Shown piece after piece: positions 7,180 to 63,850 of a DNA stretch of 64,000 nt (its first letter is position 1; every line of letters starts with the position of its first letter). The position numbers and the translations under genes are program-made. The stretch comes from Mobula birostris (taxonomy: Eukaryota): the NCBI RefSeq assembly GCF_030028105.1, contig NC_092395.1, positions 16,088,424 to 16,152,423 on the forward strand, given 5' to 3'. A model generated the notes under the pieces. The model was not told the DNA's origin. It saw only the letters and a program-made list of their open reading frames with translations, and ran no database searches.

Positions 7180-7665
7180 CTTATATTCCGTCTGGGTATC
7201 CTCCAGACATTGACTTTCCTAACTTAGGTTAATGCCCCACCTCCCCTTTGTACCCCATCCGTTATTTATTTATTTATTATTATGATTAATTTTTTTCTCT
7301 CTCTCCTTTTTCTCCCTCTGTCCCTCTCACTGTACTCCTTGCCCATCCTCTGGGCTTCCGCACCCCCCCCCCCCTTCTTTCTCCCTAGGCCTCCCGTCCC
7401 ATGATCCTCCATATCCCTTTTGCCAATCACCTGTCCAGCTCTCGGCTCCATCCCTCCCCCTCCTGTCTTCTCTTATCATTTCCGATCTCCTCCTCCCCCT
7501 CCCACTTTCAAATCTCTTACTATCTCTTCTTTCTGTTAGTCTTGACGAAGGGTCTCGGCCCGAAACGTAGACTGTACCTCTTCCCATAGATGCTGCCTCG
7601 CCTGCTGCGTTCACCAGCAACTCTTATGTGTGTTGCTTGAAATTCCAGCATCTGCAGATTTCCTC
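7180..7665 (+). mobile_element. Penelope-like element (PLE) 3' end / pseudo-LTR
   Basis: End of the GIY-YIG ORF (ttatattccgtctgggt), a pyrimidine-rich tract, a hammerhead motif, then gatgctgcct..cctgctgcgttcaccagca. Reverse complement of the 57652-58224 copy. Confidence 0.8.
7538..7573 (+). ncRNA. Minimal type I hammerhead ribozyme motif (C3U variant)
   Basis: AGTC-TTGACGA-A-GGGTCTCGGCCC-GAAA-CG-TA-GACT. Stem I AGTC/GACT and stem II GGG/CCC are intact; the first core base is mutated. Confidence 0.6.
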
Positions 7666-8520
7666 GAGGTTGCATCATGGTCTGGTATGTAAACGCCAAT
7701 ATCCAAGAACAGAAAAGCTTACAGAAAGTGGGGAATACAGCCCACTGCAAAGCCCTCCCCACCATAGAGTACATCTACAAGGAGCACTGCCACAAGAAAG
7801 CAGCATCTATCATCAAAGACACTCACAATCCAGGCCATGCTCTCATCTGCTGATGCCATCAGAAGCCTTGGGTCTCACACCATCAGGCTCATGAACAGCT
7901 ATTACCCTTCACTCATCAGGCTCCTAAACCAGTGTGGATAACTTCACTCACGGTGTGTTGGCACATGGCCAAGTGGTTAAGGCATCGGCCTAATGATCTG
8001 AAGGTTGCTAGTTCGCGCCTCAGCTGAGGCAGCGTGTTGTGTCCTTGAGCAAGGCACTTAACCACACATTGCTCTGCAACGACACCGGTGCCAAGCTGTA
8101 TCAGCCCTAGTGCCCTTCCCTTGGACAACATCGGTGGCATGGAGAGGGGAGACCTGCAGCATGGGCAACTGCCAGTCTTCCATACAACCTCGCCAAGGTT
8201 GTGTGGAAACCTTCCAAGGCGCAAATTCATGGTCTCACGAGACTAACAGAGCCTATATAAACTTCACTCACCACAACTCTGAACTGCTTTCAACGACATT
8301 ACAACCCAAGCTTTCAGTATTACTGATTTTACTTTTGTTTGTATTTGCATAGTTGTCGTCTTTTTCCACATTGGTTGTTTGTCAGTCTTTGTGGGCAGGT
8401 TTTCATTTATTCTCTTGTATTTCTCTATTCTACTGTGAATGTTTGTAAGAAAATGAATCTCAAGGTAGACCTGTATACAGTTTGACATATACGGACTTTG
8501 ATAATAAATTTACTTTGTCC
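7666..8520 (+). mobile_element. Rex1/Babar LINE 3' fragment interrupted by a SINE
   Basis: GCIMVWY..., aaagcagcatctatcatcaaagac, aacagctattacccttca, and a ctttga-type tail. Split by the SINE at 7952-8259. Confidence 0.75.
7952..8259 (+). mobile_element. Full-length tRNA-derived CORE-like SINE with 12-bp TSD
   Basis: A box tggccaagtgg, B-box-like gttcgcgcc, CORE-like domain. TSD aacttcactcac at 7940-7951 and 8260-8271. Confidence 0.85.
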
Positions 8521-9384
8521 TTGTTTTTGTACACAGGGCAACATGTTACCCTCTGGCTTTGGCCCTGGGGCCTGCAACAGGATTGGGTGGGGACAGCTGA
8601 GGTATAAACTCTGGATCAACTGCCACCAACTAGCTCCAAATGGGAAAACAAAACAGTTGCCGGTTCCAAACTGCGGTTTGTTCTCATCTGTCTGAATGCA
8701 TTTTGTTTCCAGCGTGATCCTGTATTGATTCTGTCAGATAACCATCAGGCAGATACTGTAATAAAAACCCAGGAGCTGTGAAGAATTAAACATTGTCGTT
8801 GAAGTTTATATTAGTCTCGGCACAGATAAGAATAGGAGTGACCTGGTGCTTTGTGCTTGAGATTTATCTCGTACCCTCCCCTCCCTCTTTGTCTGCTCAC
8901 TTACTGTTACCAATTCACTATCAATGCAAACGACTGAAACTCAGCTTGTATTTTTCAGTGTGACAAAATGAGACCTCTTTGGCATGCAAACCTCACGTCA
9001 CCTTGGGCTAATTGCATCCACATTTTTTGCTTGTCAAATAAAGCTATCCATATCAGCTTTTAACCACTGCTCATTTGCTGCATGTTCCCATCTCAGCTCG
9101 GCCGTCGCGCATGTAAGCTTTACCACACTGCTCCCCGCCCGCGACACATGTCAATACATGGCCTGGATTCTGGGCTGGATCGAGCACAACAAAAACAACC
9201 TGCGCTTGTGTAGCATCATTCAAAGAGGGAAACCGCCCCTGAAACTTCACTGGAACAGTTAACATGCAAATCCAGCACCAAGCCTTTCAGGGTGGACACC
9301 AAAAAAAAAGTTTGCAGGGGGAAGAGAGTCAAAGCTGTAGGGAAAGGCAACTCAGGAGTGTGGGATCAAATCTTCTGAAAATAA

Positions 9385-10990
9385 TCAGAATCAAATTTAG
9401 TATCACCAGCATATGTCGTGAAACTTGTTGTCTTTGTGACAGCACTACAATGCAAAACATAATAATAGAAAAATGTGAACTACAGTAAGTATATATATAA
9501 TAGTTAAATAAGTAGTGCAAAAATAGAACATAGAATAGTACAGCACAGTATCAGGCCCTTCGGCCCACAATGTTGTGCCGACCCTCAAACCCTGCCTCCC
9601 ATATAATCCCCCACCTTAAACTCCTCCATATACCTGTCTAGTAGTCTCTTAAACTTCACTAGTGTATCTGCCTCCACCACTGACTCAGGCAGTGCATTCC
9701 ACACACCAACCACTCTCTGAGTAAAAAATTTTCCTCTAATATCCCCCTTGAACTTCCCCTCTGCCTTACCTTAAAGCCATGTCCTCTTGTATTGAGCAGT
9801 GGCACCCTAGGGAAGAGGCGCTGGCTATCTACTCTATCTATTCCTCTTATTATCTTGTACACCTCTATCATGTCTCCTCTCATCCTCCTTCTCTCCAAAG
9901 AGTAAAATTCTAGCTCCCTTAATTTCTGATCATAATCCATACTCGCTAAACCAGGCAGCATCCTGGTAAATCTCCGCTGGACCCTTTCCAATGCTTCCAC
10001 ATCCCTCCTATAGTGAGGCGACAAGAACTGGACACAGTACTCCAAGTGTGCCCTAACCAGAGTTTTATAGAGCTGCATCATTACCTTGCGACTCTTAAAC
10101 TCTATCCCTCGACTTATGAAAGCTAACATCCCATAAGCTTTCTTAACTATCCTATCCACCTGTGAGGCAACTTTCAGGGATCTGTGGACATGTACCCCCA
10201 GATCCCTCTGCTCCTCCACACTACCAAGTATCCTGCCATTTACTTTGTACTCTGCCTTGGGAGTTTGTTCTTCCAAAGAGTACCACCTCTCACTTCTCCG
10301 TTGAACTCCATTTGCCACTTCTCAGCCCACTCCTGCATCGTATCAATGTCTCTCTGCAATCTTCGACAATCCTCTACACTACCACAACACCACCAACCTT
10401 TGTGTCGTCTGCAAACTTGCCAACCCCCCCTTCTACCCCCACATCCAGGTCGTTAATAAAAATCACGAAAAGTAGAGGTCCCAGAACAGATCCTTATGTG
10501 ACATCACTAGTCAGAACCCTCCAATCTGAATGTACTCCCTCCACCACGACCCTCTGCCTTTTGCCTATATAAATAAAAAAGTATGAGTTCATGCATTCAA
10601 TGCCCATTCAGAAATCGGATGACAGAGGGGAACAAGCTGTTCCTCCTTCCTGACGATAGCAATGAGAACAAGGCATAACCTAGGTAATGTTAGTCCTTAA
10701 TGATGGATGCCACCTTTTTGAGGCATCGCTCCTTGAAGATGTCCTGGACACCACGGAAGCTAGTGCCTGCGATGAAGCTTACTACGTTAGCAATTCTCTG
10801 CAGCTTATTTCAATCCTGTGCAGCAGCAACACCCATACCAGAAGCTAGTGTAGCCAGTTAGAATGCTCTCCATGGTACATCTGTAGAAAATTTGCGAGTA
10901 TAACAAAGCTCCTCAAATTCTTACTGATGTATGGCCACTGTCATGCCTTCTTTGTAGCTGCATCAATATGTTGGGTCCAGGGTGGATCCT
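9385..10990 (-). mobile_element. Rex1/Babar LINE 3' fragment split by a CR1 insertion
   Basis: aatcagaatc tail at 9385, resuming at ~10570 with ccattcagaaatcggatgacagaggggaacaagctgttcc. Confidence 0.7.
9522..10560 (-). mobile_element. CR1/HER1-like LINE, 3' ~1 kb, same subfamily as 2970-5478
   Basis: Colinear with 2970-4010. ORF 9659-10318 has LVRAHLEYCVQF and ALERVQRRFTRMLPG; same ttctatg tail. Confidence 0.95.
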
Positions 10991-11679
10991 GGCGAGAGTA
11001 CTGCCATTAATATTTTTTTTCAGATTAATTTTATGTCGTTGCACTGTACTGTTACTACAAAACAACAAATTTCACCTCATAAAAACAGTGATAATAAACC
11101 TGTTTCTGAATAAACCCAGTTGTACGTGAGACTTGATTTGGAGAAGGTGTCTATTTCATGGGGTGACAGGGCTGGAGGACATTAAAGACTCTTTAGAGGC
11201 ACAAAATGGTGAGGGGTATAAATAAGGAGAAACTTTTCCCAGAGCAGAGCTATCTAAAACTGCAGAGGCATAGCATTAAGATAAGGGGGAGCAGACTGAG
11301 AGGGAGATCTGAAGTATAACTTCTTTCATATGAGTAAAGTAGAACTGCAGAAGCTGGAAATCTGAGAACAAAATAGAAAATTACAGAAACACTCGGCTGG
11401 GCAGGTAGCATCTAGGGAAGGAGGAACAGTTCGTGCTTACTTTCTCCTTCGACACTGCCTGACACACTGAATGTTTTGCATATTTTCTGATTTATTTTTC
11501 CCACTCAGAAGGTAATTGGGATCTGGAACGAAGCGGTGGAGGAGTCAGGTCCTCCCACTGGTATCTCGACGAGCACTTGCACTGTTAGAAGGCTACAAGC
11601 CAAATGTTGGCAAAATGGGGGCTTGCTTTATTTTCAGATTATCATAGAAGGACAGTCACAGCTTTTAGTTATGCATTCA

Positions 11680-12240: not shown

Positions 12241-12253
12241 AGGTCAAAGGTCA
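12241..12253 (+). promoter_or_regulatory. Perfect DR1 nuclear-receptor element
   Basis: AGGTCA-A-AGGTCA in non-repetitive intronic sequence; function untested. Confidence 0.45.
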
Positions 12254-13264
12254 CCACCCGTGCTGCACTCACAAAATGCAATAAAGCCCAGGGTCATGGT
12301 GGACAGCATGATGGAATATTATTGCTTTGGTATGACATCCCACTGACCCAGCACATATATTTTACTTTTTGAAGTTCCATTGTTTTCTGTACAAAGTAAC
12401 TTAACCCTTTTTTGTCCAGAATCCTGTGAGCGACTTGCAGTTTCTTCTGCGTGTCCTCATTGTGGGACGAACTGAGGTCGTAAAAAGAAGAGAATATAGA
12501 ACACAGTGTTGCAGCTACACAGAAAGTGCAGTGCAGGTAAACAAATAAAGTGCAAGGACCTCAGCACGGTAAATTGGGAGATCAAGAATCCATCTCTAGC
12601 ATATGAAAGGTCTGTTCAAGAGTCTGATGACAGTATGTTACAAACTGTCCCGAGTCTCATAGAGTGTGCATTCAAGTATCTTGTATCCAATATGTTGCTA
12701 TGCAACTGGTTTATGTCTTTGAGATACAGAGCTATATAGCACAGTATTCAGCCCAAATCATGCACACCAATGAAGTTGCCCGCCCAAGCCAGTCCCATTT
12801 GTGTATATTTGTCCACATCTCTTTAAACCTTTTCTATCCATGTATCTGTTCAAATGGCCTTTAAATATTGCAATTGGACCCACCTCTACTTCCTCTGCCA
12901 GCTTATCCCATATCATCTCATTACATCAAGATACAGATGTGATCAAGGCCCAATTAATTATCTTCTCTTCTGAGGCGTTGGGTGGGGTGTTGGTAGGGGC
13001 ACTCTGTGAGAACGTTCCTTGAAGGTTAGAACATCGATTGGGTTTATGGGTTGGCTGTAATCTGGAGATTATGGCCCTTGGCACATATTTGATGCCATGG
13101 CGAGGGTGTAGATGCTGCAAAGATAGGAAAGTAATTTGCCTGCTGCTTTTGCTGACAAGTGCCATATTGTGAAGACCATAAGAATATAGGAACAGGAGAA
13201 AGTCATTTTGACCCTCAAGCCACTCAATATGACAATGGCACATCTACACTACCCTCAAATTAAT

Positions 13265-13545
13265 AGACATAAAATGCCAGAGGAACTTGTTATGTCAGGC
13301 AGAATTTATGGAAATGAATAAACAGTCAATGTCCCAGACTGAAGCCCTTGTTAAGGGGAGTATGTCTGAATTAAAAGGTGGCGGGAGGGAAGAGAAGGAG
13401 GCTAGCTAGAAGGTGGTAGGTGATGCCAAGTGGGTGGGAAACATCAAGGACTGGAGAAGAAGGAATCTAATAGGAGAGAAGAGTGGACCACAGGAGAAAA
13501 GTAAGGACTGATTCCAAGGGGAAGTGATAGGTAGGTAAGAAGTAG
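13265..13545 (-). mobile_element. Degenerate Penelope-like pseudo-LTR fragment
   Basis: aaatgccagaggaact...tcaggcag..tatggaaatgaataaacagtcaatgt followed by a purine-rich tract, as in the other copies. Confidence 0.6.
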
Positions 13546-14519
13546 TAAGGTTCAAGGGTTCATTTTATTATCAAAGCATGTACGCAGAATACAACTCTGA
13601 GATTCGTCTTCTCCAAATAGCCATGAAATACAGAAAAACCATGGAAGTTATTGAAAGAAAAGACATCCACCCTCCCACACAAAAAAAAGGAAACATAACA
13701 TGCAAATCCCAAACCCCCCAACCTCTCCCTCGAACAAAAACCAATGGATCGCCCAACTGGATACTGCAGCTAAAACATTAAACCCCTAATCCCCAAGCCC
13801 CTCCCATGCAAAAAAAAGTGACAATAACATCGAACCCCCCAACCCCTCCCCACCCAAAAAGTAACATATCCTCCACCTGCCAAATTGACAAGAAAGAAAA
13901 CACAGAAAAAAAAGGAGACAAATATAAACTACAGTCCACACTAATAATCACATACGTCTCAGAATTTTGAAAACATCCTTCATCAGCATCAAGAGGAGCA
14001 ACAGCTTGAACTCAGTCCTTTTGTGGGGTCTTCATCTATCAGATATCAGAATCGGGAATAGATGTGGTGAGGGGAGTGGGAAATTGCCTTCAAATTCCTT
14101 GCACCATCTTCTCCCAAGAATAGCCAATGGCTGGTGCTCTCAGGACAAGCGGTCCAAGTTTTCCCAAGAAACACTACACAGTAATAAATATCTTCCTGTA
14201 TTCCCTAAAGCATAAATTACACTGGAAGGGAGGAAATTCCCAATAAGTATCTAGCCAAATATTCCAAGTGATGCAAAACCAAACCTGTTTATTATCGTCC
14301 TTCAAAGCTGGGGAAAAAAAATCAACCTGAAAATTATACAACTGAATTTTCAGGCAAGATGACACTAGCATTTTGGTTGTAAGAAAATATGGTCGGCTAC
14401 ATGCCAGACTGCAGGATGTCTCTGGAAATATGGGTTTCTTGTCATGTTTTCCAAGCCTTGTGGTAGTCCTGAAGCATTTCATAGTGAATAAATTATGTTA
14501 AGTGCTGTCATCATGTTAT

Positions 14520-14848: not shown

Positions 14849-14868
14849 TGTAGTCTAACGTGACACAA

Positions 14869-18985: not shown

Positions 18986-19229
18986 ATGTAATGTTGGGTC
19001 TAAATCCTACAACTCCCTACCCGAAAGCGCTTTGGAGTACATTTACTCTGACTGCAGTAGACAAAGTTGACTCATCACAAGACATTCTGCAGATGCTAAA
19101 ACACCACCCCCAGAGGCAATTTAATTCATCACCACCCTCTCAGAGCGATTAGTGATGGATCACAAATATTGGCCTTACCAGTGATGCCCAAATCCTGAGA
19201 ATTTTTTGAACATTTATTTTCTTAGAGAT

Positions 19230-19460
19230 GTAGTACAGTAATAAGACCTTCTAGGTCCAACGAGGTCCCACCCATGTGACCCATTAACCTACTAACCCGT
19301 ACATCTGTGGAATGAAGGAGGAAAACAAAGCACCTGGAGGAAACACACAGAGTCACAGGAGGAGAATGTACAAACTCTTACAGACAGTGGCAGAATTTAA
19401 CCCGGGTTGCTGGCGCTGTAACAGCATTTCGCTAACCGCTACACTACTGTGCTGCCCACA
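19230..19460 (-). mobile_element. HE1/V-SINE-like SINE
   Basis: ggaggaaaacaaagcacctggaggaaacacac...ctaaccgctacactactgtgctgccc. Confidence 0.7.
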
Positions 19461-21464
19461 AATAAATCTTTTCTCATTCTTGGTACATACTTCCCTCCCT
19501 GCCCTCTTCTTTCCCAAGGGAACATGCTGGAATACCACTCAACAGGTGCAAACTTGTCTTGTGGGTGCATGTGTGGGCCTCGGTCCTGTGATGGGCATAT
19601 CACGTCACCCCAAATGAGGACATGAGCACATCGCGGGCAGACCCACTCCTGTGCACTCTCAGCAAAGTGGTATGAACAATTCATGATTACCTCAGAGGCA
19701 CTGACTTGAAACACCTCCACTCATTCTTCAAGCTATCTTGCCAACCCAGCACATCTTGGACAATGGAGCAATCATGCCTTGTACAAAGGGGTTATACATC
19801 TGTCCAAGTATCAGATCATTAAACCACAAACTGCTCCCTCTGACTGCTCAAATTTTCTTTCAATATCGGTGGTTTGGTGCTTTGCCAATATGTTAAGAGC
19901 TTAGCTATGCTATAGACTTTTGTTTGAAAAGATATTGGAGATTTCCTTGCCAGTACTGTTTATTCCATAGCTGAAAGTGCAGACATACTGGATGGAGTTC
20001 CATAGTCGCTAGCTTTCTCTCAGTACCTTAGCCCACTACTGATGTCTGATTCAAGGGAATGCTGATGTATCTGTTGACCCATCTAGTCAACAGATGGAAT
20101 AAAAGAAGTCAGTATCAATAAAACATCCTCATCAAAATACAGATTTTTTCCAGTTGTGGAAAATCAAAGTTTTCCCTCCACTACATCCAATTCACTTGGA
20201 TAGTCATACAAGGGCGGGAGTCACGCACCACAATGATTTCATGTCCTGATGTTTAGACAGATACATAACCCCTTTGTACAATGCATGATTGCTCCACTTT
20301 CTAAGATGTGATTTCCACACCTTAACAAATGAATCAAGATAGCCGGGAGGAGAGTAAAGTGAAGTTATTTTGAGTAAGTGAGGTAATCCATGAACTGCTG
20401 TGGATCAAAGTCCCACAACTCCCTAACTATTCATACAAGGGCAGCACCTTCAGCTCCTCCGACTTCTGTTCAGGAAAATAGCACAGTGCCATCTTCTTAA
20501 CATCATTTAGGGATGGGTATCAAATGGGCACCATGCCAGCTCTGCCCACATCCTGTGAGACGATAAACAAATCTCTAACGTAAGCTGGTAAACCAAAGAC
20601 ATGCGTCACGCTGCAAGTGCTCACCCATTGAGTCAAAGGAGCAACTGCTCATAGTTAGGAAAGCAATCAACAGTAGTATGTCAGGTTTAGCCAGAAATAC
20701 ATTCCAGTCATTCTGTGGGTGTTTTAACGTCTCATAACATTTTACATTGTTCCAAGCACAATTTCAAGACACTGTTTTGCCAATGCAATTCAGGCAGCAG
20801 GAGGATGTTTAAATTAGAATGTAACAGGTCAGCAGTGACATGTTCCAATCAAACCCACCCTGATTTGCATCATGTTCAAGAGCCACATTAAATCATGCCC
20901 TGTTGCTGACCCAAGGTTAGAACAAAGCCTGAGGCTTCTCTATAATCCGTGCTGCTCTGAGGTCTCCTGCGAAGCGAGCTGTCCAAACAGGTGAATCATT
21001 TAAGGAGGTATGCATCGACTTTCAAGGACGCTAAAGTGAGTCCCCAAAATCTCTAGCACAAATCTAACACCATCATATACGTGTCTCCAAAATCTTACAA
21101 AATCCTGCAGGATGTAAAACAATCCCACTGGATTTTAATAATAAAAACAGATTATAAACCATAAAAACATAAATAATAGAACTCAATTTTGAAAGTGTTC
21201 ATGAGAGACTGAAGCACACTAAGTTCCATAAAATTCTAATTTTAATGATGTCTTCAAAACTGGGCTTTGCTACTATATTTTTGCCAACAGCTAAAAGCGT
21301 ATTCCTTCAGCATCTTTGGAATTTTTAAGAAAGCTCATCTTCCTGTTGATTACTTTTACAACATTTTATTAAGCTTTTTCTCAGCAGTGTTGGCATGCAC
21401 AAATGAATTTTAGTTTGGTGGAGGCGGACACTGAGGAAAACAGAAATTAGTGAGGACTAAACAT

Positions 21465-22225
21465 TAGAAAGTCTGCAAATGCTGGAAATCCAAAGCAACA
21501 CACACAAACTGCTGGAGGAACTCAGCAGGCCGGGCAGCATCTATGGAAAAGAGTAAAGAGTCAACGTTTCAAGCCGAGACCCTTCTTCAGGGCTGCGTAA
21601 GAAAGAGGAAGATGCCAGAATAAAAGGGTGGGGAGAGGGGAAAGAGGCTGGCTGGAAGGTGATAGGTGAATCCAGGTGGGTGGGAAGGGTGAAGGGCTGA
21701 AGTTTACTGTTCTATGGATCTGCTAAGTATGCCTGCAGAAAAGGAATCCCAGGGTTGTATGTGGTGACATGTATGCACTCTGATAATAAATTTTACTTTG
21801 AACCTAGAGAGGAAAGAATCTGATAAGGAGGAGAGTGGACCATAGGAGAAAGAGAAGGATGAGGAGACCCAGGGGAAATAATAGGCAAGTGAAAAGAAGT
21901 AAAAGGTCAGAGTGGGGAATAGAGGTGGTTGGGGGGGGGGGGGGATTTTTTTTTACCAGATGGAGAAATCGATATTCATGCCATCAGGTTGGAGGGTACC
22001 TAGATGGAATTTTAAGTGTTGCTCCTCCAGTCGAGGACGGCCTATCTTGACAATAGAGGAGCCCGTGGATTAATATGTTGGAATGGAAATGGGAATCCAA
22101 ATTAAAATGTTTGGCCACTGGGAAGTTCCGCTTGCGGCGGATGGTGCGGAGGTGTTTAACGAAGCGTTTCCGATTTGGCTCTCACCAACTTAGAGGAGGC
22201 CGCCTCGGGAGCACTGGACACAATA
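21465..22225 (-). mobile_element. Penelope-like element 3' part (GIY-YIG remnant + pseudo-LTR), interrupted by a Rex tail at ~21701-21803
   Basis: Minus strand carries a decayed CSRGGLL*VGE..GNASLNTSA / LPSGQTF*FGFPFPF version of the CSRCGLLYIGE...LPVA.HFN GIY-YIG block; hammerhead motif at 21559-21594. Confidence 0.75.
21559..21594 (-). ncRNA. Minimal type I hammerhead ribozyme motif
   Basis: AGCC-CTGAAGA-A-GGGTCTCGGCTT-GAAA-CG-TT-GACT. Core intact, G-U pairs in stem II, one mismatch in stem I. Confidence 0.6.
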
Positions 22226-22939
22226 GATTCCTAGAAGAAGCTCTTAGTGGAAATAGTATTCTTTTCAAACCTATTGAGTTACAATCAAAGTCCGATTGGA
22301 TCCGTAGTCACTCTGAACCAAAGCAAGATTTCCACACATTTTACAGGAAAACACCAGTTCCTGGGAAGAATGTAATTTACATTCAAATCATTGGTATGAT
22401 TCTGTAAAACTATTTCAATCAGATTAAATGAATGAAGGTAAAATTATTTTGATTTTAAACAGAAGTTAAATCAAAAATAGTAAAGTATTAGAAACTGAAG
22501 CTACATTGATTTGCAAAAGTATACAGTTGGGAAGAATTAGATACTGTTTGGATTGAGAAATATAAGGTATTTCATCCACTTTAGCTCTTGGTGTGTCCAA
22601 TCGATTTGGACTTGTATTGAATTCAACCCTATACATGTATACTGCCAAACGAAACAATGCTTCTCCAGACCAAGGTGCACAACAAACTAACAAATAATAA
22701 GTTGCATTTATGACAAGTTAAAAAGTGAACAGTACAATGCTACTATATGGACAGCTATATGATAGCTGTACGGACAGGACAGGAATGAAGGATTATGGGC
22801 TGAGTGCAGGTTGGTGGGACTAGGTGAGAGTAAGAGTTCGGCCTGGACAGGAAGGGCTGAGGTGGCCTGTTTCTGTGCTGTAATTGTTATATGGTTAATA
22901 GACGACCCCAGCAGATTTGCAGGGGAAGTGTTGCCTTAC

Positions 22940-22960
22940 CAGGAAGGACTGTTTGGGGCC
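22940..22960 (-). other. Candidate 21-nt alternative microexon of the TLE gene (GPKQSFL if phase 0)
   Basis: cttctcatctccactcag|GGCCCCAAACAGTCCTTCCTG|gtaagg. About 70 nt upstream are AG-free and the length preserves frame. No homology evidence. Confidence 0.3.
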
Positions 22961-23269
22961 CTGAGTGGAGATGAGAAGGTGGTGTATGGGCAGATGATAT
23001 GACATTATCAGAAAAAAAATGATGGGAAATGACTACTTCAGCAGGGTATATGTCTGCAGGATCTTCAGAGAAACCGTTCCCAAACTGGGACCCACAGACT
23101 CCTTGCTTAATGGTATTGGTCCATTGCATGAAAAAAGTTGGTAATCCCTCCTTTAGAGGGAAACAGTACTTTGTGATGACATCACTAGAGGAAATAATGG
23201 ATGGAAAATAACTCAGTCAAGTCATAATAAATATTTCATTTGAATTAAAAGATAAGCGTTATTTGGCAT

Positions 23270-23799: not shown

Positions 23800-24060
23800 T
23801 TGTCGTTTCTATCAACCACCTACACAATCTGAGGGTAGTCTGCAAGTGTTGCCATGCTTCCAGTGCCAACAAAGTACACCTATGACTTACTATCCCTTAG
23901 CGGTACATCTTTGGGATGTGTGAGGGATCAGGAGCATGCGACGGAAACCCACGTAGTCACAGGGAGAACAGACAAATTCGTAACAGACAGTGGCAGGAAG
24001 TGAACCCCACACACCGGTGCTGCAAAGGGTTAAGTTAGTCACTATGCTACGGTGCCGCCC
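23800..24060 (-). mobile_element. HE1/V-SINE-like SINE
   Basis: ggaaacccacgtagtcacagggagaac...actatgctacggtgccgccc. Confidence 0.7.
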
Positions 24061-26679: not shown

Positions 26680-27870
26680 AAATAGGAGGAGGTAGGCAAA
26701 CTTGCCTTTCTAAGGTGCCTCACATATTAATAGATTCATGGGTGATCTGCCCCATGCCTCAGCTCCACATAGCCCCTCATTCAAAATCATTCCAAAACTG
26801 ATCCAGCTTCTCTTTAAACATTTCCAGTGAGTCAGCTTGCACACCACCCCAGGGTAAAGAGTTCCAAAGACTCGCCATGATCTTTGAGAAGAAATTCCTA
26901 ATCCACATTGGTTTTCAATGATTGTCCTCTAATCCTGTCATGATGTTCCCTTCCCACTGGGAGGAATACTTCAACGTCTATCCTGCCGTAACCCCTGAAC
27001 ACTATTACAGCTCAGAGCGTTCTGGAGTTAGAGGTTCAATTCCACTGCTGTTCTGTAAGGTAGGATTCTGTCAACCTTCGCCCCTTTTGGTACGAAGTGC
27101 ACATCTATGAATGCCCACCCCATGCAGTGCGTGGGTTTACCCCAGGTTCCCTGGTTTTCACCCCACCCCCCACCCCAGAGGCCAACGACATACTGGGTAG
27201 ATTAATTGGTCACTGTAAAATGCCCTGTGATTAGGTTAGGGTTAATCGAATTTGTCGAGGATTGCTCAGCCTGACTCGGAGGGTCTCCTCTGGGGCGCTA
27301 ATTAAAATAAAAAGATCACCCCTCAATTTTCTGAACTCCAAAAAAAAAATACAGATGAATTCTTTTAGCCATCATCAGGGAGATTAGCTTTATGTCACAA
27401 GTATAGTACATCAAAACTTACCGTGAAATGCAAATCAATTCAGCTGAGCAGCCCACAAGTGCCATCACACTTCCAGTGCCATTAATATCATGCCTGCACT
27501 CACTAATCCTACTGTACACCCTCAAAATGGAGGAGGAAACCGGAACACTTAGAGGAAACCCACTCAGTCATGAGGAGAAGATACAAACTCCTTACAGACA
27601 GTGGCAGGAATCGAACCTCCAATATTCCAACTGGCCCTGCAAGGGGAATGTCCTAACCACTGCACTACTGTGCCCCCAGGAATCTGCCAAATGAATTTCT
27701 TCTGGACTGCCTCCAATGTTAGCGTATCCCTTCTTGAACATAAGGACGAAAACTTTGCATTATATTCTGATTGTGATTGCACTAACTGTACAATCGTAAC
27801 AACGTGTCACTATTTCTAAACTTCAATCCTCTTGCAAGACGGGCTGGTTGGCATAGGTACTGCCTAATTG
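26680..27870. mobile_element. Old CR1 fragment (-) with nested V-SINE-like copies (27000-27300 +, 27460-27680 -)
   Basis: CR1 remnants (agagttccaaagactc, actgcctccaatgttagcgtatcccttcttg) flank the SINE cores. Confidence 0.6.
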
Positions 27871-36450: not shown

Positions 36451-36473
36451 TCTACTGGCATCACGATCTCGGT
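36451..36473 (-). CDS. TLE2: Groucho/TLE corepressor, 23-nt microexon (equivalent to TLE exon 8)
   Basis: catccag|ACCGAGATCGTGATGCCAGTAGA|gtaagt. It completes the split codon G|AC and gives DRDRDASR, phase 1-0, like the short exon 8 of TLE genes (TLE1 DREPGT, TLE4 DRDSIK, TLE2 VERAPSR). A CTAACTAAC branch-point motif and an AG-free pyrimidine tract lie upstream. Confidence 0.85.
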
Positions 36474-44038: not shown

Positions 44039-44234
44039 CTCTGTGATGTTCCATGTCCAGGTGATTCTTATCGTCTTTCATCGCTAAGTGTGCATGGACG
44101 CCGAGGGCACTGGAGAGAGCCAAGAGGCCTGAGCCACCGCTAATGGAAGGAATCCCCGTAGGCTGGAGTCCTGACGGATGTGGAGTGAGTGGAATTGGAG
44201 GTGCATGATGGGACAGGTGCTGGAGCTGCTGCTG
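44039..44234 (-). CDS. TLE2: Groucho/TLE corepressor, GP-domain exon (equivalent to TLE exon 7)
   Basis: 196-nt exon, ccttacttatag|CAGCAGCAG...AGAG|gtaaga, translates [65 protein letters not shown]+G. It matches the TLE GP domain (TLE2-type LSHHAPP; TLE1-type [27 protein letters not shown]). Phase 0-1, in frame with the previous exon. Confidence 0.95.
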
Positions 44235-44419
44235 CTATAAGTAAGGATGCTGATGTCAATAGCAGATCAGACAAGTTTACACCAAATAAATAAATCACAT
44301 GACAGAAATCATTCTCTATCGTGCCAGAGGAGATGGCCAATAGCAAGAGAGGTACACTTTTGCATTTATTAACTCTTTCAAGAGCAAAAATATAGAGATT
44401 CGAGATTCAGTAATTTATT

Positions 44420-44705
44420 TATTTATCGAGATACAGCACCGAATAGGCCCTTCCGACCCTTTGAGCCACGCCACCCAGCGATCCCCCGATTTAATCTCAT
44501 CCACTCATGGGACAATTTACAATGCTCAATTAACCTACCAACCAGTGAGTCTTTGGACCATGAGGGAGGAAACTGGAGCTCCTGGAGGAAACCAAGCAGT
44601 GACAGGGAGAACACACAAACACCTTACAGAGAGTAGAGGGAATTGAACCTGGGTTGTCTGTATAGTAAAGTGTTGTACAAACCACTCCACTACCATGCCA
44701 CCCCA
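44420..44705 (-). mobile_element. HE1/V-SINE-like SINE
   Basis: Full head, core and tail, like 5530-5800. Confidence 0.8.
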
Positions 44706-44829: not shown

Positions 44830-44948
44830 AAGAGAAAATCTGCATATGTTGGTAACCACACAAAATGTTGGAGGAACTCAGCAGGTCAGGCAGCATCTAT
44901 GGAAAACAGTACAGTTGATGTTTCGGGCCAAGACTCTTCAGCAGGACT
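44830..44948 (-). mobile_element. Penelope-like terminal fragment with a decayed hammerhead (44913-44948)
   Basis: AGTC-CTGCTGA-A-GAGTCTTGGCCC-GAAA-CA-TC-AACT followed by gatgctgcctgacctgctgagttcctcca. Confidence 0.65.
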
Positions 44949-47139: not shown

Positions 47140-47954
47140 CCTAAATTTTGAAATTACTGGGCTGAAGTATAATTATTAGTTGGTCACCAGAGTATATTTC
47201 CCTGGTTTCCTTCAAACTGGTCTCTTGGGGATGTTCTCATCCACAAGGGAGAGCACACAGGGCTTTGTTTAAGAGCCTGAATTGATTACCAGTATTTCCA
47301 ACAATACCGCTTCCCACTGCACTGGAGGTTACAAGTTCAAGTCCCACTCTGGAAATCCATACACAGGACTTTCAGTACCAAGAGAATGACGCATTGTTGA
47401 AGATGCTGGCATTCACTTTCGTACTTAAGATCTCAGACTTGGAACCCACAACCTTCTAGCTCAGAAGTTTCATCTAATATTACGGCCTTTTGCCTTGCTC
47501 CCCACATCACTTCAACAGATTCTAAATAGCTGCTGCTGGAACCAGCACAAGGCATTCCCTCAAGAGAGTCGTACACCATAAAATAATTGGCTCCTCAGCC
47601 ATATCATTTTGTAATGTTTTCCCCATTGCCTTTCTGCTTCACATGAAAAATGTAAGTGTGGGTCTACATTAAGGAACAGGAAGGTGTGGAGAAACAGATT
47701 GTCAGCCAAGGTTCAGTGGGTAGAATGCTCACCTCCAGGTCAGAGGTTCCACTCTTACTCCAAAGACTTCAGCACTGAAATCTGGGCTGATACCGCGGAG
47801 CAGTCCCAACTGAGCACTGCATTCTCACAGGTGCCATCTTTAGAAGGGAAATGTTAAGGTCTTGTCAAAATGATCTCAAGATTGTGGCTTATCCCATGTC
47901 TTAATATTTTTTCCTTCATTGAAACAGCTTTAATTGCTGCTCCACAATAACAAG

Positions 47955-48257
47955 AAACTTTGCAGATGCTGGAAATCCAAAGCATCACACACACACAATG
48001 CTGGAGGAACTAGGCAGGCCAGGCAGCATCTATGGAAAAGAATAAAAAGTCGACATTTCGGCCCGAGACCCTTCGTCAGGATTGGAAAGAAAGATGAGAG
48101 GTCAGAGTAAGACGGTGGAGGGAGGGGAGGAAGAAGTACAAGGTGGTAGGTGATAGGTAAACCTGAAAGAGGGAGAGGGCTGAAGTAAAGATGTTTTTGC
48201 CCTTTTCTATAGATGCTGCCTGGCCTGCTGAGTTCCTCCAGCATTTTGTGTGTGTTT
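47955..48257. mobile_element. Fold-back Penelope-like fragment (terminal module repeated in inverted orientation)
   Basis: aatgctggaggaactaggcaggccaggcagcatctatggaaaag (~47997-48040) is the reverse complement of cttttctatagatgctgcctggcctgctgagttcctccagcatt (~48203-48246). Confidence 0.8.
48048..48083 (-). ncRNA. Minimal type I hammerhead ribozyme motif
   Basis: AATC-CTGACGA-A-GGGTCTCGGGCC-GAAA-TG-TC-GACT. Core and GUC cleavage triplet intact; stems I and II weakened. Confidence 0.6.
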
Positions 48258-48669
48258 AATTGCTGCTGTGTTTTATTGTACTATGTGAAAATTCACTGCC
48301 AGATGTCCTACATGAAAAAAATCAAAGAAACTACCCAGATGCTGGAAGGCTGAAGCAAAAGCAGGTACCCCTGAGCGGCTGTAAAAGAAATTATATTTCA
48401 CTCTTATTTATTTTGATATATAACATGTTAACTAGCCCTTCCGGCTCAACTACCCCTTGCCAACCAATTACACCCATGTCACCAATTAACCTACTAACTT
48501 GTTCATCTTTGAAATGTTGGAGGAGACCCGCCCAGTTATGGGGAGAAGATACAACCTCCTTAGCTACAGCTGAGGGGATTTGACCTGGATTGCCAGTTGT
48601 GTAACAGTGTTACACTAATTCCTTTGCTACCCTGCCACCACATGCTGGTGCAAACCATGTAAGTTGAAA

Positions 48670-51933: not shown

Positions 51934-52008
51934 CCCAATGATGGCATTCAGCTCCGCCATGGTGACCTGCTTAGCTCGCTCAATTGCCTGGACCACCTGT
52001 TGCTGGTG
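51934..52008 (-). CDS. TLE2: Groucho/TLE corepressor, internal coding exon (C-terminal part of Q domain; equivalent to TLE exon 6)
   Basis: 75-nt exon, ttctctttggtttaacgacag|CAC...GGG|gtaagt, translates HQQQVVQAIERAKQVTMAELNAIIG. This is nearly identical to the vertebrate TLE1-4 Q-domain segment, with the conserved length and phase 0-0. Family assignment is firm; the paralogue assignment (TLE2) is an inference. Confidence 0.95.
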
Positions 52009-52149: not shown

Positions 52150-52380
52150 CAGCTTCACAAAGTCCAACATCCCTGTCGTGAAAGGCAGAAATGGGTAAGG
52201 CCGGCCAACGGTGCTGTCGTGAAGCTGTGAATGCCAATCCTCTGTACAGCGGATGGAATGGATTGCAGAAGCATTGATGAACTCCAACCAGACCATCAAC
52301 GTCAGAGGACGCTGGAGACGGGAGGTCATCGGCGGCCTATGCTCTTCGGAGCTAAGGGCCCAAGTAAATAAGTAAGTAAC
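52150..52380 (+). mobile_element. RTE-type LINE 3' end
   Basis: acgctggagacgggaggtcatcggcggcctatgctc followed by a (taag)n tail. Confidence 0.5.
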
Positions 52381-52600
52381 AGGCCCTTCTAGCCCAATGA
52401 GCCCCCGCTGCCTAATTACATGTATGTAACCAATTAACCCACTAACCCGTACATCTTTGGAATATGGGAGGAAACCGGAGTATCGGGAGGAAACCAACAC
52501 ATTCACCGGGAGAATATATAAAGTCCTTACAGACAGCATCGGAACGATACCTGAGCTGCCGGCACTGTAATATCATTATGCAAAATGCTGTGGTACCATG
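52380..52600 (-). mobile_element. HE1/V-SINE-like SINE
   Basis: gggaggaaaccggagtatcgggaggaaacc core. Confidence 0.7.
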
Positions 52601-54346: not shown

Positions 54347-54386
<40 letters not shown>

Positions 54387-55076: not shown

Positions 55077-55284
55077 ACACACATAAAAGTTGCTGGTGAA
55101 CACAGCAGGCCAGGCAGCATCTCTAGGAAGAGGTACAATTGACGTTTCGGGCCGAGACCCCTCATCAGGACTAACTGAAAGAAGAGCTAGTGAGAGATTT
55201 GAAAGTGGGAGGGGGAGGGGGAGATCCAAAATGATAGGAGAAGACAGGAGGGGGAGGGATGGAGCCAAGAGCTGGACACGTGGA
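55077..55284 (-). mobile_element. Penelope-like terminal fragment with 14-bp TSD
   Basis: TSD cacacagacatgtg at 55063-55076 and 55285-55298; close match to 7430-7630. Confidence 0.85.
55137..55172 (-). ncRNA. Minimal type I hammerhead ribozyme motif (best-preserved core)
   Basis: AGTC-CTGATGA-G-GGGTCTCGGCCC-GAAA-CG-TC-AATT. Canonical CUGAUGA and GAAA core, GUC triplet, ACGU palindrome; first stem I pair mismatched. Confidence 0.7.
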
Positions 55285-57469: not shown

Positions 57470-58830
57470 CATTGGAAAACAAAGACTTTACTTCCTGAAT
57501 ACTCCTATGTGCATCTTGTGGATTTTGGGCTGCTGATCATGAAAATCACCATGAAATTTCCCTATCATACACCATATTTTTGAAATCACCTCTGTTTGTT
57601 ATTTCAATTCATAATTCAAGTCAGAATAACTGATCCCAAGATTAAAGAAGGTAACACACATCAAAGTTGCTGGTGAACGCAGCAGGCCAGGCAGTATCTC
57701 CAGGTAGAGGTACAGTCGACGTTTTGGGCCGAGACCCTTTGTCAGGACTAACTGAAGGAAGAGCTAGTATGAGATTTGAAAGTGGGAGGGGGAGGGGAGA
57801 TCTGAAATGATAGAAGACAGGAGGGGGAGGGATGGAGTCAAGAGCTGGACAGTTGATTAGAGAGGGTCATGGGACAGGAGGCCTAGGGAGAAAGAAAAAG
57901 GGAAGGGGGGGAACCCAGAGGATGGGCAAGGGGTATAGTCAGAGGGACAGAGGGAGAAAAAGGAGAGAGAGAAAAAATGTGTGTATATAAATAAATAACG
58001 GATGGGGTACGAGGGGGAGGTGGGGCATTAGTGGAAGTTTGAGAAATCAATGTTCATGCCATCAGGTTGGAGGCTACCCAGGTGGAATATAAGGTGTTGT
58101 TCCTCCAACCTGAGGTGGCTTCATCTTTACAGCAGAGGAGGCTGTGGATAGACATATCAGAATGGGAATGGGACGTGGAATTAAAATGTGTGGCCACTGG
58201 GAGATCCTGCTTTCTCTGGCGGACAGAAGGCATTTCTGTTGGTCACAAATCAAACAGGTCATCAATGACAGGCAATTCTAGTGGGACTGGAGAAAATTGC
58301 ACGGAAGGCTTCAAGGATGTCAAAAATTTTCTTGGCAAATACAGTGCACCAAACTTCCTGCAAGCTGGTAGACAACACGCTTCAAGCATACAAAACTATG
58401 ATGTGCTACATGCCACTAAAGATTTATTTTCTGCATTCCAATTTAGACTTCCTCCCTGCAAATCTTGGAGCTGTCAGTGACGAGCATGGTGAGAGGTTTC
58501 ACCGGGACATTGCAGTCATGGAGAAACTGTATCAGGGCAACTTGAATCCATCAGTACTGGCTGATTATTGTCAGACACTTAAGCAAGAAGCATCAGATGC
58601 TGAGTACAAATGAAAATAATCAGCAAAACATTTTTAGCTTAGTTGAACTATTGCAAAGCGTCAGCATCGTTATGCAATTAAACACATCATATTCAATGAA
58701 AGCTAATTTCTTGTATCACATAGGAACTTGGAGGAACAATCAGTCTGAAATTATGTTTATGTTTAGCTTCAAGCAGTCTACCATAAACAAAAAAATATTT
58801 GTGAGGAAGCATTAGAATCTCAAGGTTTCT
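57470..58830 (+). mobile_element. Chapaev3-like (CMC superfamily) DNA transposon remnant, internally deleted, interrupted by a PLE
   Basis: ORF 58281-58613 LQAYKTMMCYMPLKIYFLHSNLDFLPANLGAVSDEHGERFHRDIAVMEKLYQGN..PSVLADYC matches the recalled Chapaev3 motif HFLHSHLDFFP.NLG.VSDEHGERFHQDI. KIKEG|ISVG is rejoined across the insertion. Confidence 0.75.
57652..58224 (-). mobile_element. Penelope-like element 3' part (GIY-YIG C-terminus + pseudo-LTR with mutated hammerhead at 57714-57749)
   Basis: Minus strand reads SVRQRKQDLPVATHFNSTSHSHSDMSIH...RLEEQHLIFHLGSLQPDGMNIDFSNF; flanked by an agaagg duplication (57646-57651 and 58225-58230). Confidence 0.85.
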
Positions 58831-60262: not shown

Positions 60263-60334
60263 ATTTTAAGTCAAGATTGCATATTTTCATGAAGTAGTTA
60301 ATACCTAATAGGCAAGTGGCCTTAACGATGGAAG

Positions 60335-60970
60335 TGCACAGTAGTGTAGTAGTTAGTGCATCGCTATTACAGCTGAGGGCATTGGATTATGGGGTGCACT
60401 GTAGTGTGGTAGTCAGCACAATGCTTTACAGTATCAGGGATTCGGGTTCAATTCTCACGACTGGCAGTAAAAAGTTTGTACGTTTTCCCTGTGACTGCAT
60501 GGGTCTCCTTTGGAGCTCTGGTTTCCAGAGGTGTACTGGTTGGTAGGTTCGTCATTGTAAATTGTCCGTGATTAGGCTAGGGTTAAATTGGAAGTTGCTG
60601 GGCGATGTAGTTCGAATGTCTGAATGGGCCTATTCTGCGCCACACCCTAAATAAATAGATAAACAAACAAACCAAATTGCAGAGTTCAATTCCAGTGTCA
60701 TAAGAATCTGCGCCACACCCTAATAAATAGATAAACAAACAAACCAAATTGCAGAGTTCAATTCCAGTGTCATAAGAAGTTTGTGTAATATTCTCCCCAT
60801 GGCTCCGGGTGCTCTGGTTTCCTCCCACGGGTCATATAGCATATCAGTTAGATGCTTAATTGGTTATTGTAAACCATCCTGTAATCAGGCTAAGGTTAAA
60901 TAGGTGGATTGCTGGGTGACGTGGCTAGTTGGACCAGAAGGGTTTTTTCCGTGCTGTATCTCTAAATGAA
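60335..60970 (+). mobile_element. Two tandem HE1/V-SINE-like copies
   Basis: A/B boxes and ccgggtgctctggtttcctccca core; CR1-like tails. Confidence 0.7.
60634..60778. repeat. 73/72-bp near-perfect tandem duplication
   Basis: tctgcgccacacccta(a)ataaatagataaacaaacaaaccaaattgcagagttcaattccagtgtcataagaa occurs twice (60634-60706, 60707-60778). Confidence 0.9.
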
Positions 60971-61829
60971 TTAATTAAATGAAAAAACTCTGGACTGCTC
61001 GAGCTAGCAGTCTGGGTGAAAACAGTGGGCCAAATGGCCTCACACATCCGATTCCAGGTTTATATCTCATCCCTCAGCCCCTCCCGATCTTCATTAGCTG
61101 CCAGCTAAGGAGCCGTGGAAGAAAGCACAAGAAAAATGTTTAAATGTTTAACAGTTCCATGTTCCCTTCAGGATGTTGGCTCATGAATTCAACCCAAGTG
61201 CAAACAAGGAACTACAGGAGACAAGTCGGGAGCAAAGCTGGAAAACTTGACAAATAAATCCAATATTCTTAGAAAAAGGTAACATGATTTTAATAAGCAG
61301 GATTTCTAGTGCCAAGTTGATTTAATGTTTGACCATCTCAGGTTCAATGTTACAATTAATCCTGAGGAGTTCATTAATTCTGCAGTTTCAGCTCAAACGG
61401 TTCTGACTGCCGTTTGCCGAGGCTCCACTGAGGACAAGTTATTACTACCAGCATTCTGCTTCATTGCTGACACACTGTGCCCCAGGGGATTTGGACATAA
61501 CTGCAATAAGTCACAAGGATCGCACACATTACGGAAGAAAAACTTGTCAGCCCATCTTCTGCTGAGCCACGGAAGCAAGCAGGCCCCTAATCCGATATAC
61601 TTTACCACGGCAACAGCTTAAGTTCAAAGTTCAACATACATTTATTATCAGAGTATGTATACATTATACAACCTTGAGATTTGTCTCCTAACAGGCAAGC
61701 ATGAAACAAAGAAACCCAAAAAAATCCATAAAAAAAGACCATATAACACCTAACATGGAGGGAAAAAAAAACAAATCATAGAAACAATAAGACGCTGCAC
61801 TACATTTCCTTAGACACCACATCATCTAA

Positions 61830-62355
61830 CTTTCTCACTGCAAGCACAGAAGGTGAATGTGCAAATATCGAGCCGCGGGGGGAATCTCAATGGGTCAGAC
61901 AGCACCTGTAGAGGGAACTGGACAGCCGTATTTTTAGTTGAGACCCCTCGTCTGGACCGAAAGAGCAGAGGGGAGATAGCTGTGAAATGAGGAGAGGTGG
62001 AGAGATAGGTGGAACCAGACGAGGAGGAGACAAAGGGCTGCAGATGACAGATCAGATAGGAAGAGCATGCAACAAAATAAGGGAGGTGAAGTAGGTAGAT
62101 GGGAGGAGTAGAGGGAGGGGACCCAGTGGGAGGAGTGTGTGGGTGATGGGCAGATGAATTTCGAGGAGGGGAAAGAAAGGGAGAGAGTGATTTAGAATGA
62201 AGGTGAGGTGGAATGGGAAGTAGTATTATGATATGTGATCACTGGAAGATCCCACCTGTTGTGGTGGAGAGAGCGAAGATGCTCGATGAAGCGGTCCCCC
62301 AATCAACGTGTCTCAATGTAAAGGAGGCTGTACCACAAACACGAGTTACAGTATA
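61830..62355 (-). mobile_element. Old Penelope-like remnant (left arm of the inverted pair)
   Basis: Minus strand cagcctcctttacattgagacacg..accgcttcatcgagcatcttcgctc (GIY-YIG), a pyrimidine tract, and a decayed hammerhead ccagacgaggggtctcaactaaaa. Confidence 0.65.
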
Positions 62356-63019
62356 CTGAGTGCAATACAATATATAGTTTTGGTATACTAAGGAAAAGAA
62401 TATTGAAGGGCCTTTGAAGAAAATTACTAAGAACTGCCAATGGGTAATAAACCCTTTGGGTAAGTCTGCAAACACTTTTGGAGAGGAATTAAGGTTGCAG
62501 CACAAGCGTGAGAGGGCCTGGCTTGACAAAATGAGAGATAAAGGAGCAGAGAGGGAGCAGTGGCTGTACTCTCATTTATTTAAGGTCATAGGAAGAAAAA
62601 ACTCCACCAACCATCACCAGATCTGGACATGACATGAAGTAGTGACAATATCCTCAAGTGGCTTCTGTAGCTTGTGCAGTCAGGCAGTGCTTGGGGGCTG
62701 AGATGCTTGTTTACTGATTAAATGAACTCTGAATTCACTACCAGAGGATATTAGAGATATCAGTTCCTGCAGCCAGGTCAAATCAACCATGAAGTTCTAT
62801 TTGCTCTGAGTTTCTCAGCCCTCTCTTTAATCATATCTGTCAACCCGCCTCAGCCCGCTTCTTCACTGCGATCACAATTCTTCTGCTGCAACCTTAACTC
62901 ACCTCTGAAAGAGTTTTGTGGATTTACCTAAAGGGATCATTACGCATTGGCAGTTTTTAATAAATTACAGTATTCTTCTCTTCAGTATACTGAAGTTATA
63001 TATTGTATCACACACACTA

Positions 63020-63850
63020 TACTGTATCTGTTACTCCCGGTACAGCCTCCTCTCCATCAGTGAGACACAACGTAGACTGGAGGACCACTTTGTCGAGCGT
63101 CTTTTTTCCGTCCACCACAACATGTGGGATTTTCCAGAGATCACCTATTATCATTCTACTTCCCATTCCCATTCTGACATGTCAGTCCACGGCCTTTCTA
63201 CAGCCACAATAAGGCCACTCTCAGGTTGGAAGAGCAGCATTTCACATTCCTCCAATCTAACGTCCTGATGAAAGTTCTCAGCCTGGAACATCAACTGTTT
63301 ACTCTTTTCCATAGACGTAGCCTGGCCTGCTGAGTTCCTCCAGCGTTGTGTGTGTGTTGCTTTGAATTTCCAGCATCTGCAAGTTTTCTTTTGTTTGGAA
63401 TGAACATTGATTTCTCTAAAACCCAGCAATTTTCCCACTCCCTGTTCTCATTTTTCCTACCCCTATTCTAGCTCCTCTCTTTCCCCCTCCCCTTCTCCTC
63501 ATCTGCTCATCACCTCGCTCTAGTGCCCCTCCTTCTTCCCATTCTCCCATCGCCTAACTTCTTTCTTATAAGATTCCTTCTTCTCCAGCTCTTTACCTTT
63601 TCGACCTGTCGTCTCCCAGCTTCTCACCTCATTTCCTCTCCTCTACCCTCCTACATTCCCACTCACCTGACCACCCATCACTTGCCAACCCCTACCTCTT
63701 CTTCTCCCTTTATTATTCTAGCTTCTTTCCCCTTCCTTTTTATTACTGATGAAAGCTCTCAGGACAAAATCTTGACTGTTTATTCCCCTCCTTAGGTTCC
63801 TGTGGAATTTTGTTCCTCTGGATTTTCAGCATCTACAGAATCTCTTGTGT
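63020..63850 (+). mobile_element. Penelope-like remnant (GIY-YIG + pseudo-LTR, two decayed hammerheads at ~63261 and ~63746)
   Basis: ORF 62918-63268 YCICYSRYSLLSISETQRRLEDHFVERL..STSHSHSDMSVHGL is a decayed YCIRCS.CGLLYIGET.RRL.DRF.EHL GIY-YIG block. Confidence 0.8.

Follow-up and report, generated by a model that had tools for sequence, protein, structure and literature searches.

The 64,000-nt window analysed here, taken from the forward strand of Mobula birostris (GCF_030028105.1, NC_092395.1:16,088,424–16,152,423), holds part of the host gene TLE4 and a family of dispersed repeats that carry a 36-nt hammerhead ribozyme-like stretch, hereafter the motif. The TLE4 exons lie on the minus strand. 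The first (51934–52008) encodes residues 103–127 and matches Pfam TLE_N with E 2e-10, the second (44039–44234) encodes residues 128–192 and is 100% identical to Hemitrygon and Mobula TLE4, and the third is a 23-nt micro-exon (36451–36473, residues 193–200) bounded by AG/GT and in phase with the exon before it. Four TLE4 isoforms yielded no further exon in the window, and the Pfam search for host genes covered 150 of the 1,020 unmasked open reading frames (ORFs) of at least 30 residues. We consider it very probable that the repeats are 5′-truncated 3′ ends of an abundant Penelope-like element (PLE) family found in rays, likely of the Neptune clade, that each carries a decayed form of the known PLE minimal hammerhead, and that the copies within TLE4 introns are likely inactive relics.

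The repeat family is real and its coordinates are right. A pattern of the 25-nt core finds six places in the window at up to three mismatches, against a mean of 0.00 and a maximum of 0 in 100 shuffles. An nhmmer profile built from seven window copies, which match it by construction, recovers at E≤4e-4 all ten copies listed in the initial annotation, where minus-strand motifs are positioned by their low ends; BLAST between copies and alignments agree on the same ten. The profile also reports a decayed copy at 35089–35168 (+, E 1.3e-7), an inverted tail piece at 48176–48256 (+, or from about 48190) and a tail-only piece at 11338–11435 (−), while the best match in a reversed-window decoy reaches only E=2.7. 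Motif-bearing copies thus total 11 in 64 kb.

Copy A (7176–7667, +) reads as a 5′-truncated PLE 3′ end, with the tip of a GIY-YIG endonuclease domain (7171–7278 by tblastn), a pyrimidine-rich untranslated region (UTR), the motif (7538–7573) and a long tail, flanked by an 11-bp target-site duplication. It sits inside a long interspersed nuclear element (LINE) remnant, antisense to TLE4. Its motif can be laid out as stem I (7538–7541 with 7570–7573), the core (7542–7548), an extra A (7549), stem II (7550–7553 with 7558–7561), G12 to A14 (7562–7564), A15.1 (7565), the CG of stem III (7566–7567), U16.1 (7568) and position 17 (7569), and carries C3U. Copy C (21463–22230, −) has the same order of GIY-YIG remnant (21962–22228), UTR, motif (21559–21594) and long tail; its core is intact, stem I carries a mismatch and position 17 is U. 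Some 670 bp of other sequence separate it from a remnant of the linker and endonuclease start (22898–22999, −), which is probably its 5′ part. Copy F (57653–58230, −) retains a frameshifted GIY-YIG remnant (58034–58227), the UTR, a motif with G8A and G12A (57714–57749) and a short 3′ end. Two copies with endonuclease remnants are older. Copy G (61874–62506, −) is diverged, with a GIY-YIG remnant at 62204–62359 and three core changes in a motif at about 61922–61958, and copy J (62880–63848, +) has a GIY-YIG remnant (63008–63249) that resumes past a nested insert, a UTR and a decayed motif with G12A at about 63742–63778. The insert is copy H (63261–63392, +), a younger copy of about 130 bp whose 5′ end lies at the 5′ arm of stem I and whose motif carries A13G. 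Copies G and J stand head to head, with inverted arms (62210–62506, −, and 62880–63169, +) that are 74% identical and about 370 bp apart; these arms have about 150 bp upstream of the GIY-YIG region in common that bear little resemblance to the PLE ORF.

Copy E (55077–55282, −) has an intact core and stem II and a broken closing pair of stem I in its motif (55137–55172), with a short 3′ end and a 14-bp duplication. In copy D (47950–48260, −) an inverted tail arm, the piece at about 48190 noted above, precedes the direct arm with the motif (48048–48083), whose core is intact and whose stems bear a G.G (stem II) and a mismatch (stem I), and a duplication of 12–13 bp flanks the whole unit. Copy I (44830–44948, −) is about 120 bp long and begins exactly at the 5′ arm of stem I; its motif (44913–44948) carries A6C and a broken stem I closing pair. 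Copy B (13246–13548, −) is old, with four core changes in a motif at about 13324–13356, and copy K (35082–35188, +), absent from the initial annotation, is a heavily decayed motif and tail. The 3′ ends fall into two classes about 30 nt apart, short in E and F and long in A, C, D, H and I, and the window holds no full-length copy. Each insertion was independent; target-site duplications of 11–14 bp flank three copies, one has an inverted 5′ arm, and the two kinds of 3′ end differ by the PLE "tail", all of them traits already described for PLEs.

Mapped TLE4 exons enclose copies D and I on both sides, so that for these two the placement in host introns made in the initial annotation is borne out directly. 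Every other copy falls outside the stretch spanned by the exons found; as the window holds no further TLE4 exon, they too would be intronic, within outer introns that exceed 36 kb and 12 kb. Seven of the 11 motif-bearing copies are sense to the TLE4 pre-mRNA, which amounts to no depletion (p=0.55).

Judged by its sequence, the motif is the minimal type I hammerhead ribozyme (min-HHR) of PLEs. Cervera & de la Pena (2014; PMC4209133) defined the min-HHR in PLE pseudo-long terminal repeats (pseudo-LTRs) by a U-rich flank, CUGANGAH, a G10.1–C11.1 pair, GAAAN, palindromic positions 15.2/16.2, UH and a stem I of small size. Every one of these features is present in the majority sequence of ten window copies, including the U-rich flank and a stem I of 3–5 bp. 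The core CUGANGA...GAAA...UH in type I topology is found in the window majority and, at the positions shown, in a majority drawn from public contigs; in the majority sequence neither UH nor any of the 11 fixed core bases deviates. The unpaired extra base between A9 and stem II and the G10.1–C11.1 closing pair are present, stem III is an unstable ACGU palindrome (15.2/16.2), and A15.1–U16.1 is retained in nine of the nine copies with letters there. In five copies the motif lies 3′ of the GIY-YIG ORF, as expected for a PLE terminal repeat. This agrees with the background on which the initial annotation relied, that PLEs carry minimal type I hammerheads in their pseudo-LTRs, although the extra base after A9, linked there to the CChMVd viroid hammerhead, is no viroid-like peculiarity, being listed in PMC4209133 as a standard feature of the PLE min-HHR. 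The motif as written in that annotation corresponds to the majority sequence, whereas none of the ten copies is free of a defect in a core base or a stem.

The carrier likely belongs to the Neptune clade. Translations and tblastn place C-terminal GIY-YIG remnants 5′ of the motif in copies A, C, F, G and J. The best-preserved stretch, 58114–58242, shares 92% identity with a Mobula protein and 84% with two Hypanus proteins (three matches among four candidates), and the Mobula ORF continues into the UTR of copy F with 88% identity over 42 residues at 57980–58105. The Mobula and Hypanus homologues contain an aspartate pair of reverse transcriptase (RT) type (YIDD in two of the three), a CX4CxxC linker and a GIY-YIG domain with CxxC and two His, and score 18.8–20.9 bits against the Pfam GIY-YIG model, just under its cut-off of 22.6; none of six remnants from the window matched Pfam, and a protein search with the most decayed GIY-YIG remnant gave none among five candidates. 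A CX2-5CxxC linker finger is present in all 13 homologues examined, five ray proteins among them, and the cysteines are lost from the window's own linker remnant (22898–22999). Among 1.84 billion proteins, 18,649 relatives were found at E≤0.001, and of 20 looked up, the named ones either bear the label "hypothetical" or belong to ray, skate, whale shark, gar, sea urchin and snail. The layout is that of an endonuclease-bearing (EN+) PLE, whose single ORF joins a telomerase-like RT to a C-terminal GIY-YIG of CCHH type, pieced together from GIY-YIG remnants in the window and an RT seen only in ray homologues that are 84–92% identical. Craig et al. (2021; PMC8557442) describe the linker finger as absent in Penelope and Poseidon and present in Neptune and Nematis, and the vertebrates examined in bioRxiv 10.64898/2026.07.22.740005 have Neptune and Poseidon PLEs only; the finger in the ray homologues therefore makes Neptune likely. 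The EN+ Neptune elements of PMC8557442 resemble the window family in a C-terminal GIY-YIG of CCHH type, in the CX2-5CxxC linker as seen in the ray homologues, and in 5′ truncation, an inverted 5′ arm and an optional tail of 30–40 bp; the window differs in having neither a full-length element nor RT, and Nematis also has a linker, in reduced form. The proposal that the longer copies belong to a PLE with GIY-YIG upstream of the motif is upheld by the five copies and by the RT-endonuclease homologues of rays, and the host, presumed from the letters to be chondrichthyan, is indeed a ray. The RefSeq sets of ray and skate annotate fragments of the PLE ORF (P0005–P0009, P0040 and P0095) as uncharacterised host genes, in one case as mucin-2.

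The family is present at high density, as initially claimed, both in the window (11 copies in 64 kb) and among public contigs at least 80% alike over 7400–7720 (321 bp), which number 59,724, 64,293, 16,455 and 3,529 in four runs and so reach tens of thousands in three. The first three runs come from three different organisms, and one run, X19, is probably DNA; the contigs cannot show RNA ends, and their summed depth is no measure of copy number. Taking the ray genome to be a few Gb, as we assume, the 11 copies of this one 64-kb window extrapolate to motif copies on the order of 10^5 per genome. The contig majority restores C3 (95–99.7%) and C17 (82–94%), and the master motif is therefore intact at the positions shown. 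The element end is sharp in the contigs at 7665–7675. C11.1 (window 7561) is U in 31, 42, 9 and 49% of depth in the four runs and still pairs with G10.1; set against a change of only 6–14% at its CpG partner G12, this is likely a subfamily with a G10.1–U11.1 wobble. Two of the runs show loose ends at 7547 (123 and 190 contigs, with an agreement of 0.42–0.46) that resemble the A6C core of copy I, hinting, at low agreement, at an A6C subfamily in two organisms; A6C is described as a natural hammerhead variant that favours Mn2+ (PMC7151607).

By their sequence the copies themselves are decayed relics rather than working ribozymes. None of the ten has both core and stems intact and three have an intact core, and scanning the window with a strict descriptor yields no intact motif, compared with a mean of 0.08 per 64 kb in shuffles; with no copy intact, they are likely inactive leftovers. 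Five CpGs fall within the 36-nt motif, involving G8, G12, C15.2/G16.2 and C17 among others, and CpG columns are 65% conserved across the ten window copies, compared with 91% for the non-CpG core. In the contigs the catalytic G12 CpG is changed no less than the loop CpG: G12>A accounts for 14, 11, 11 and 6% of depth in the four runs and G>A at the loop-2 CpG for 9, 11, 6 and 6%, with stem III CpG changes of 5–15% and similar rates at the C17 CpG. The core CpGs are therefore unprotected genome-wide, and the initial picture of ribozymes scattered through host introns gives way to one of motif remnants. The CpGs mutate quickly after insertion, so that the motif disappears from genomic copies, with no selection preserving it; methylation-driven deamination would be the most likely cause.

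Several observations weigh against this reading. RT sequence of the element is absent from the window, and the clade call therefore rests on the homologues. The non-CpG core is kept slightly better than the sequence downstream across ten copies (82/90 vs 286/350, p=0.037); the best seven do not show this (60/63 vs 218/245, p=0.16), and the excess is open to selection bias because copies were chosen partly by their core. Covariation in stems I and II does not rise above shuffles (108–233 of 500) on ten copies, too few and too closely related a set, so that the structure is backed by its match to the published consensus and not by window data. The contig table lacks 23 rows, including G8, and covers contigs at or above the 80% level. 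The ray profile has no significant match in any of 29 related metagenomic PLE loci (best E 0.87), and these loci therefore supply no covariation for the ray family. One of the 29, the metagenome contig L013, holds on its minus strand near 1615 a strict minimal hammerhead of different sequence, with a 7-bp stem II, an extra A and an AUAU palindrome, together with a related PLE RT fragment.

That the motif folds as a type I hammerhead, as initially proposed, holds as a pattern match; nearest-neighbour folding with ViennaRNA, which ignores tertiary contacts and Mg2+, prefers a rod. For the majority monomer the rod has −11.9 kcal/mol and P 0.54 compared with −7.9 kcal/mol and P 0.0008 for the hammerhead, and pairs G5–G8 with CGUC, which spans stem III and the cleavage triplet. 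Two copies joined as a double hammerhead have −14.7 kcal/mol compared with −32.1 for the best dimer fold. Folding z-scores of seven stretches are unremarkable (−1.15 to +1.72). The model is consistent with PMC4209133, where cleavage was weak for dimers and absent for the monomer tested, and with Frangieh et al. (2024; PMC11167929), where the motif of the Anolis Poseidon element PAc cleaved only with the element protein and in dependence on C3–G8. Activity of the motif is likely confined to master-element transcripts, where it would be weak and need help. By analogy with these two studies, a master transcript with two pseudo-LTRs would be cut weakly after GUC as an ACGU-joined double hammerhead, or with the aid of protein, whereas a lone motif is predicted to form the inactive rod. 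The dispersed copies would be passengers on the PLE 3′ end, which survives truncation because it is copied first, and would decay neutrally. The tail-only piece, at about 11431, and the inverted arm of copy D, at about 48190, start no more than about 3 nt from the predicted cleavage site; a possible inverted arm beside the former (11420–11540) is not significant. Such starts would be expected were cleaved RNA sometimes copied, and two decayed cases are no proof of it.

The two short copies, at 44913 (−) and 63261 (+), might, instead of being random truncations, represent a non-autonomous element in its own right, about 125 bp long, headed by the hammerhead, SINE-like (short interspersed nuclear element) or retrozyme-like, and mobilised by the PLE enzyme. 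Two of the 11 motif-bearing copies, I and H, start within 1 nt of the motif 5′ end, and loose 5′ ends of contigs pile up at 7538–7539 in four runs (158, 175, 110 and 9 contigs). In run X1, 7648 in the tail is connected to 7538, where the motif starts, by a contig junction of depth 310, which may reflect a retrozyme-like tandem unit of 111 nt at another genomic site, and bioRxiv 10.64898/2026.07.22.740005 treats retrozymes as PLE derivatives and includes one chondrichthyan with hammerhead-bearing tandem repeats. The consensus of the loose ends at 7538 is pyrimidine-rich, however, with an agreement of 0.36–0.49, and the UTRs of other subfamilies fit it equally; the window has no tandem array, copies I and H lack a clear flanking duplication, and reverse transcription from tail to motif of an ordinary PLE RNA with its 5′ end at the motif would give the same product. 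We regard a separate short element as unlikely.

On another account the motif resembles a hammerhead but never cleaves, and the master element retains it solely as a structure for protein binding or priming. The predicted inactive rod and the lack of covariation are compatible with it, ribozyme mutations in Anolis are reported to leave insertion in vitro unaffected (PMC11167929), and PMC4209133 leaves non-cleaving functions open for PLE motifs. The correctness of 11 of 11 fixed core bases and of UH in the majority speaks against this account, as does the Anolis motif, which cleaves when protein is added and needs C3–G8. The retention of five CpGs in the 36-nt motif compared with one in the next 64 nt points weakly the same way (P 0.004 at the window CpG ratio, 0.23 at a ratio of 1). 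A purely structural role seems improbable to us.

A bolder version has dead sense copies complementing one another as double hammerheads, the core of E with the strand of F or D, and cutting introns when PLE protein is present, in a family that may also include the hammerhead-headed element of about 125 bp and the A6C subfamily. With some 10^5 copies per ray genome, many pre-mRNAs would carry several sense copies; we think it very unlikely all the same. Less credible still, and extremely unlikely in our view, is that ribozymes in the intronic copies still work and cleave TLE4 pre-mRNA, either alone or by the E core with the F or D cleavage strand. The pairs E with F and E with D do satisfy the core, stems I–III and UH on the sense strand; they are two of three complete combinations among 21 pairs whose enzyme copy has an intact core, and in the third, E with A, the partners are on opposite strands. 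Copy F lies 2.6 kb from E in the same intron, and minimal hammerheads cleave weakly as dimers (PMC4209133). The E/F pairing nevertheless comprises only 8–9 intermolecular base pairs, and by the same folding model its active fold has −14.3 kcal/mol compared with −26.6 for the best dimer fold (monomers −9.3 and −8.2); sense copies are not depleted, the core is unprotected genome-wide, and for the Anolis element RNA-seq revealed no ends at the site of cleavage (PMC11167929). That the pattern arose by chance in an ordinary repeat is barely credible: comparison of the window with Rfam at E≤1 gave three weak, unrelated matches and no hammerhead, and the strict descriptor finds none there, but the majority fits every published feature at the expected place in a PLE, and that descriptor matches shuffles only 0.08 times per 64 kb.

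Other repeats share the window. LINE remnants, which we take to be CR1-like, lie at 3006–5485, 9587–10564 and 32240–32871, all on the minus strand, and the first retains long endonuclease and RT frames (Pfam Exo_endo_phos_2). A second dispersed family of at least eight copies (5561–5801, 6605–6934, 19227–19401, 23903–24057, 27514–27674, 44414–44705, 48429–48586, 52377–52553 and 60396–60964), with a weak tRNA-like match at 27596–27674 (Rfam E 0.51), is probably a tRNA-derived SINE. Next to copy F, a 114-residue frame at 58269–58613 (+) has the look of a DNA-transposon remnant and no Pfam match.

Set against known systems, the window family shares with the min-HHR of PMC4209133 the core, the extra base, G10.1–C11.1, the palindromic two-base stem III, the short stem I and the U-rich 5′ flank, as well as a location 3′ of GIY-YIG and mostly solitary copies from truncated elements; motifs there too are mostly single. 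The Acropora Neptune row of its Fig. S3 is like the window motif in its CUGACGAA core, 4-bp stem II with a 4-nt loop, CG palindrome and UC. No cartilaginous fish is listed in that Fig. S3 or in Table S1, and the 4-bp stem II of the window is at the short end of the published range. That paper reports min-HHRs in Xena, Poseidon and Neptune elements of fishes, and counts about 4,000 for coelacanth and about 9,000 for Xenopus; the density of the window (11 in 64 kb) looks higher than such genome counts of 4,000–9,000, but those are of intact motifs. Anolis PAc (PMC11167929) likewise has a hammerhead in its pseudo-LTR and two ends separated by the tail, and its element end and priming site lie 111–118 nt past the start of stem II compared with 116–117 nt here, a likeness that may be chance; it is a Poseidon element with no linker finger, in which cleavage, assisted by protein, has been shown. 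The non-LTR retrozymes of animals (PMC7229834; bioRxiv 10.64898/2026.07.22.740005) also combine a type I hammerhead with a link to PLE pseudo-LTRs. They are tandem repeats, in PMC7229834 with canonical hammerheads and circular RNAs, whereas the window copies are dispersed, minimal and joined to GIY-YIG; tandem complete hammerheads, by which retrozymes are recognised, do not occur in the window, which has neither a tandem nor an intact motif. The exact degenerate motif has no match in metagenome contigs and none in viral contigs. In the openly accessible literature searched, no description of this ray PLE hammerhead family was found.

The window family is thus a new ray example of an arrangement known since 2014 in fishes, coelacanth and Xenopus, and the known picture of PLE hammerheads is unchanged by it. 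Through it the known range of the PLE minimal hammerhead comes to include rays, where copy number is very high, and it offers a large natural series for the question of what role the motif plays in PLE transposition. Copy boundaries in such a series can tell a cleaved from an uncleaved RNA template: two copies in the window start at the 5′ end of the motif, and two pieces start near the cut. The CpG-rich core suggests how the host may tolerate so many insertions, in that methylation would disable copies soon after they insert.

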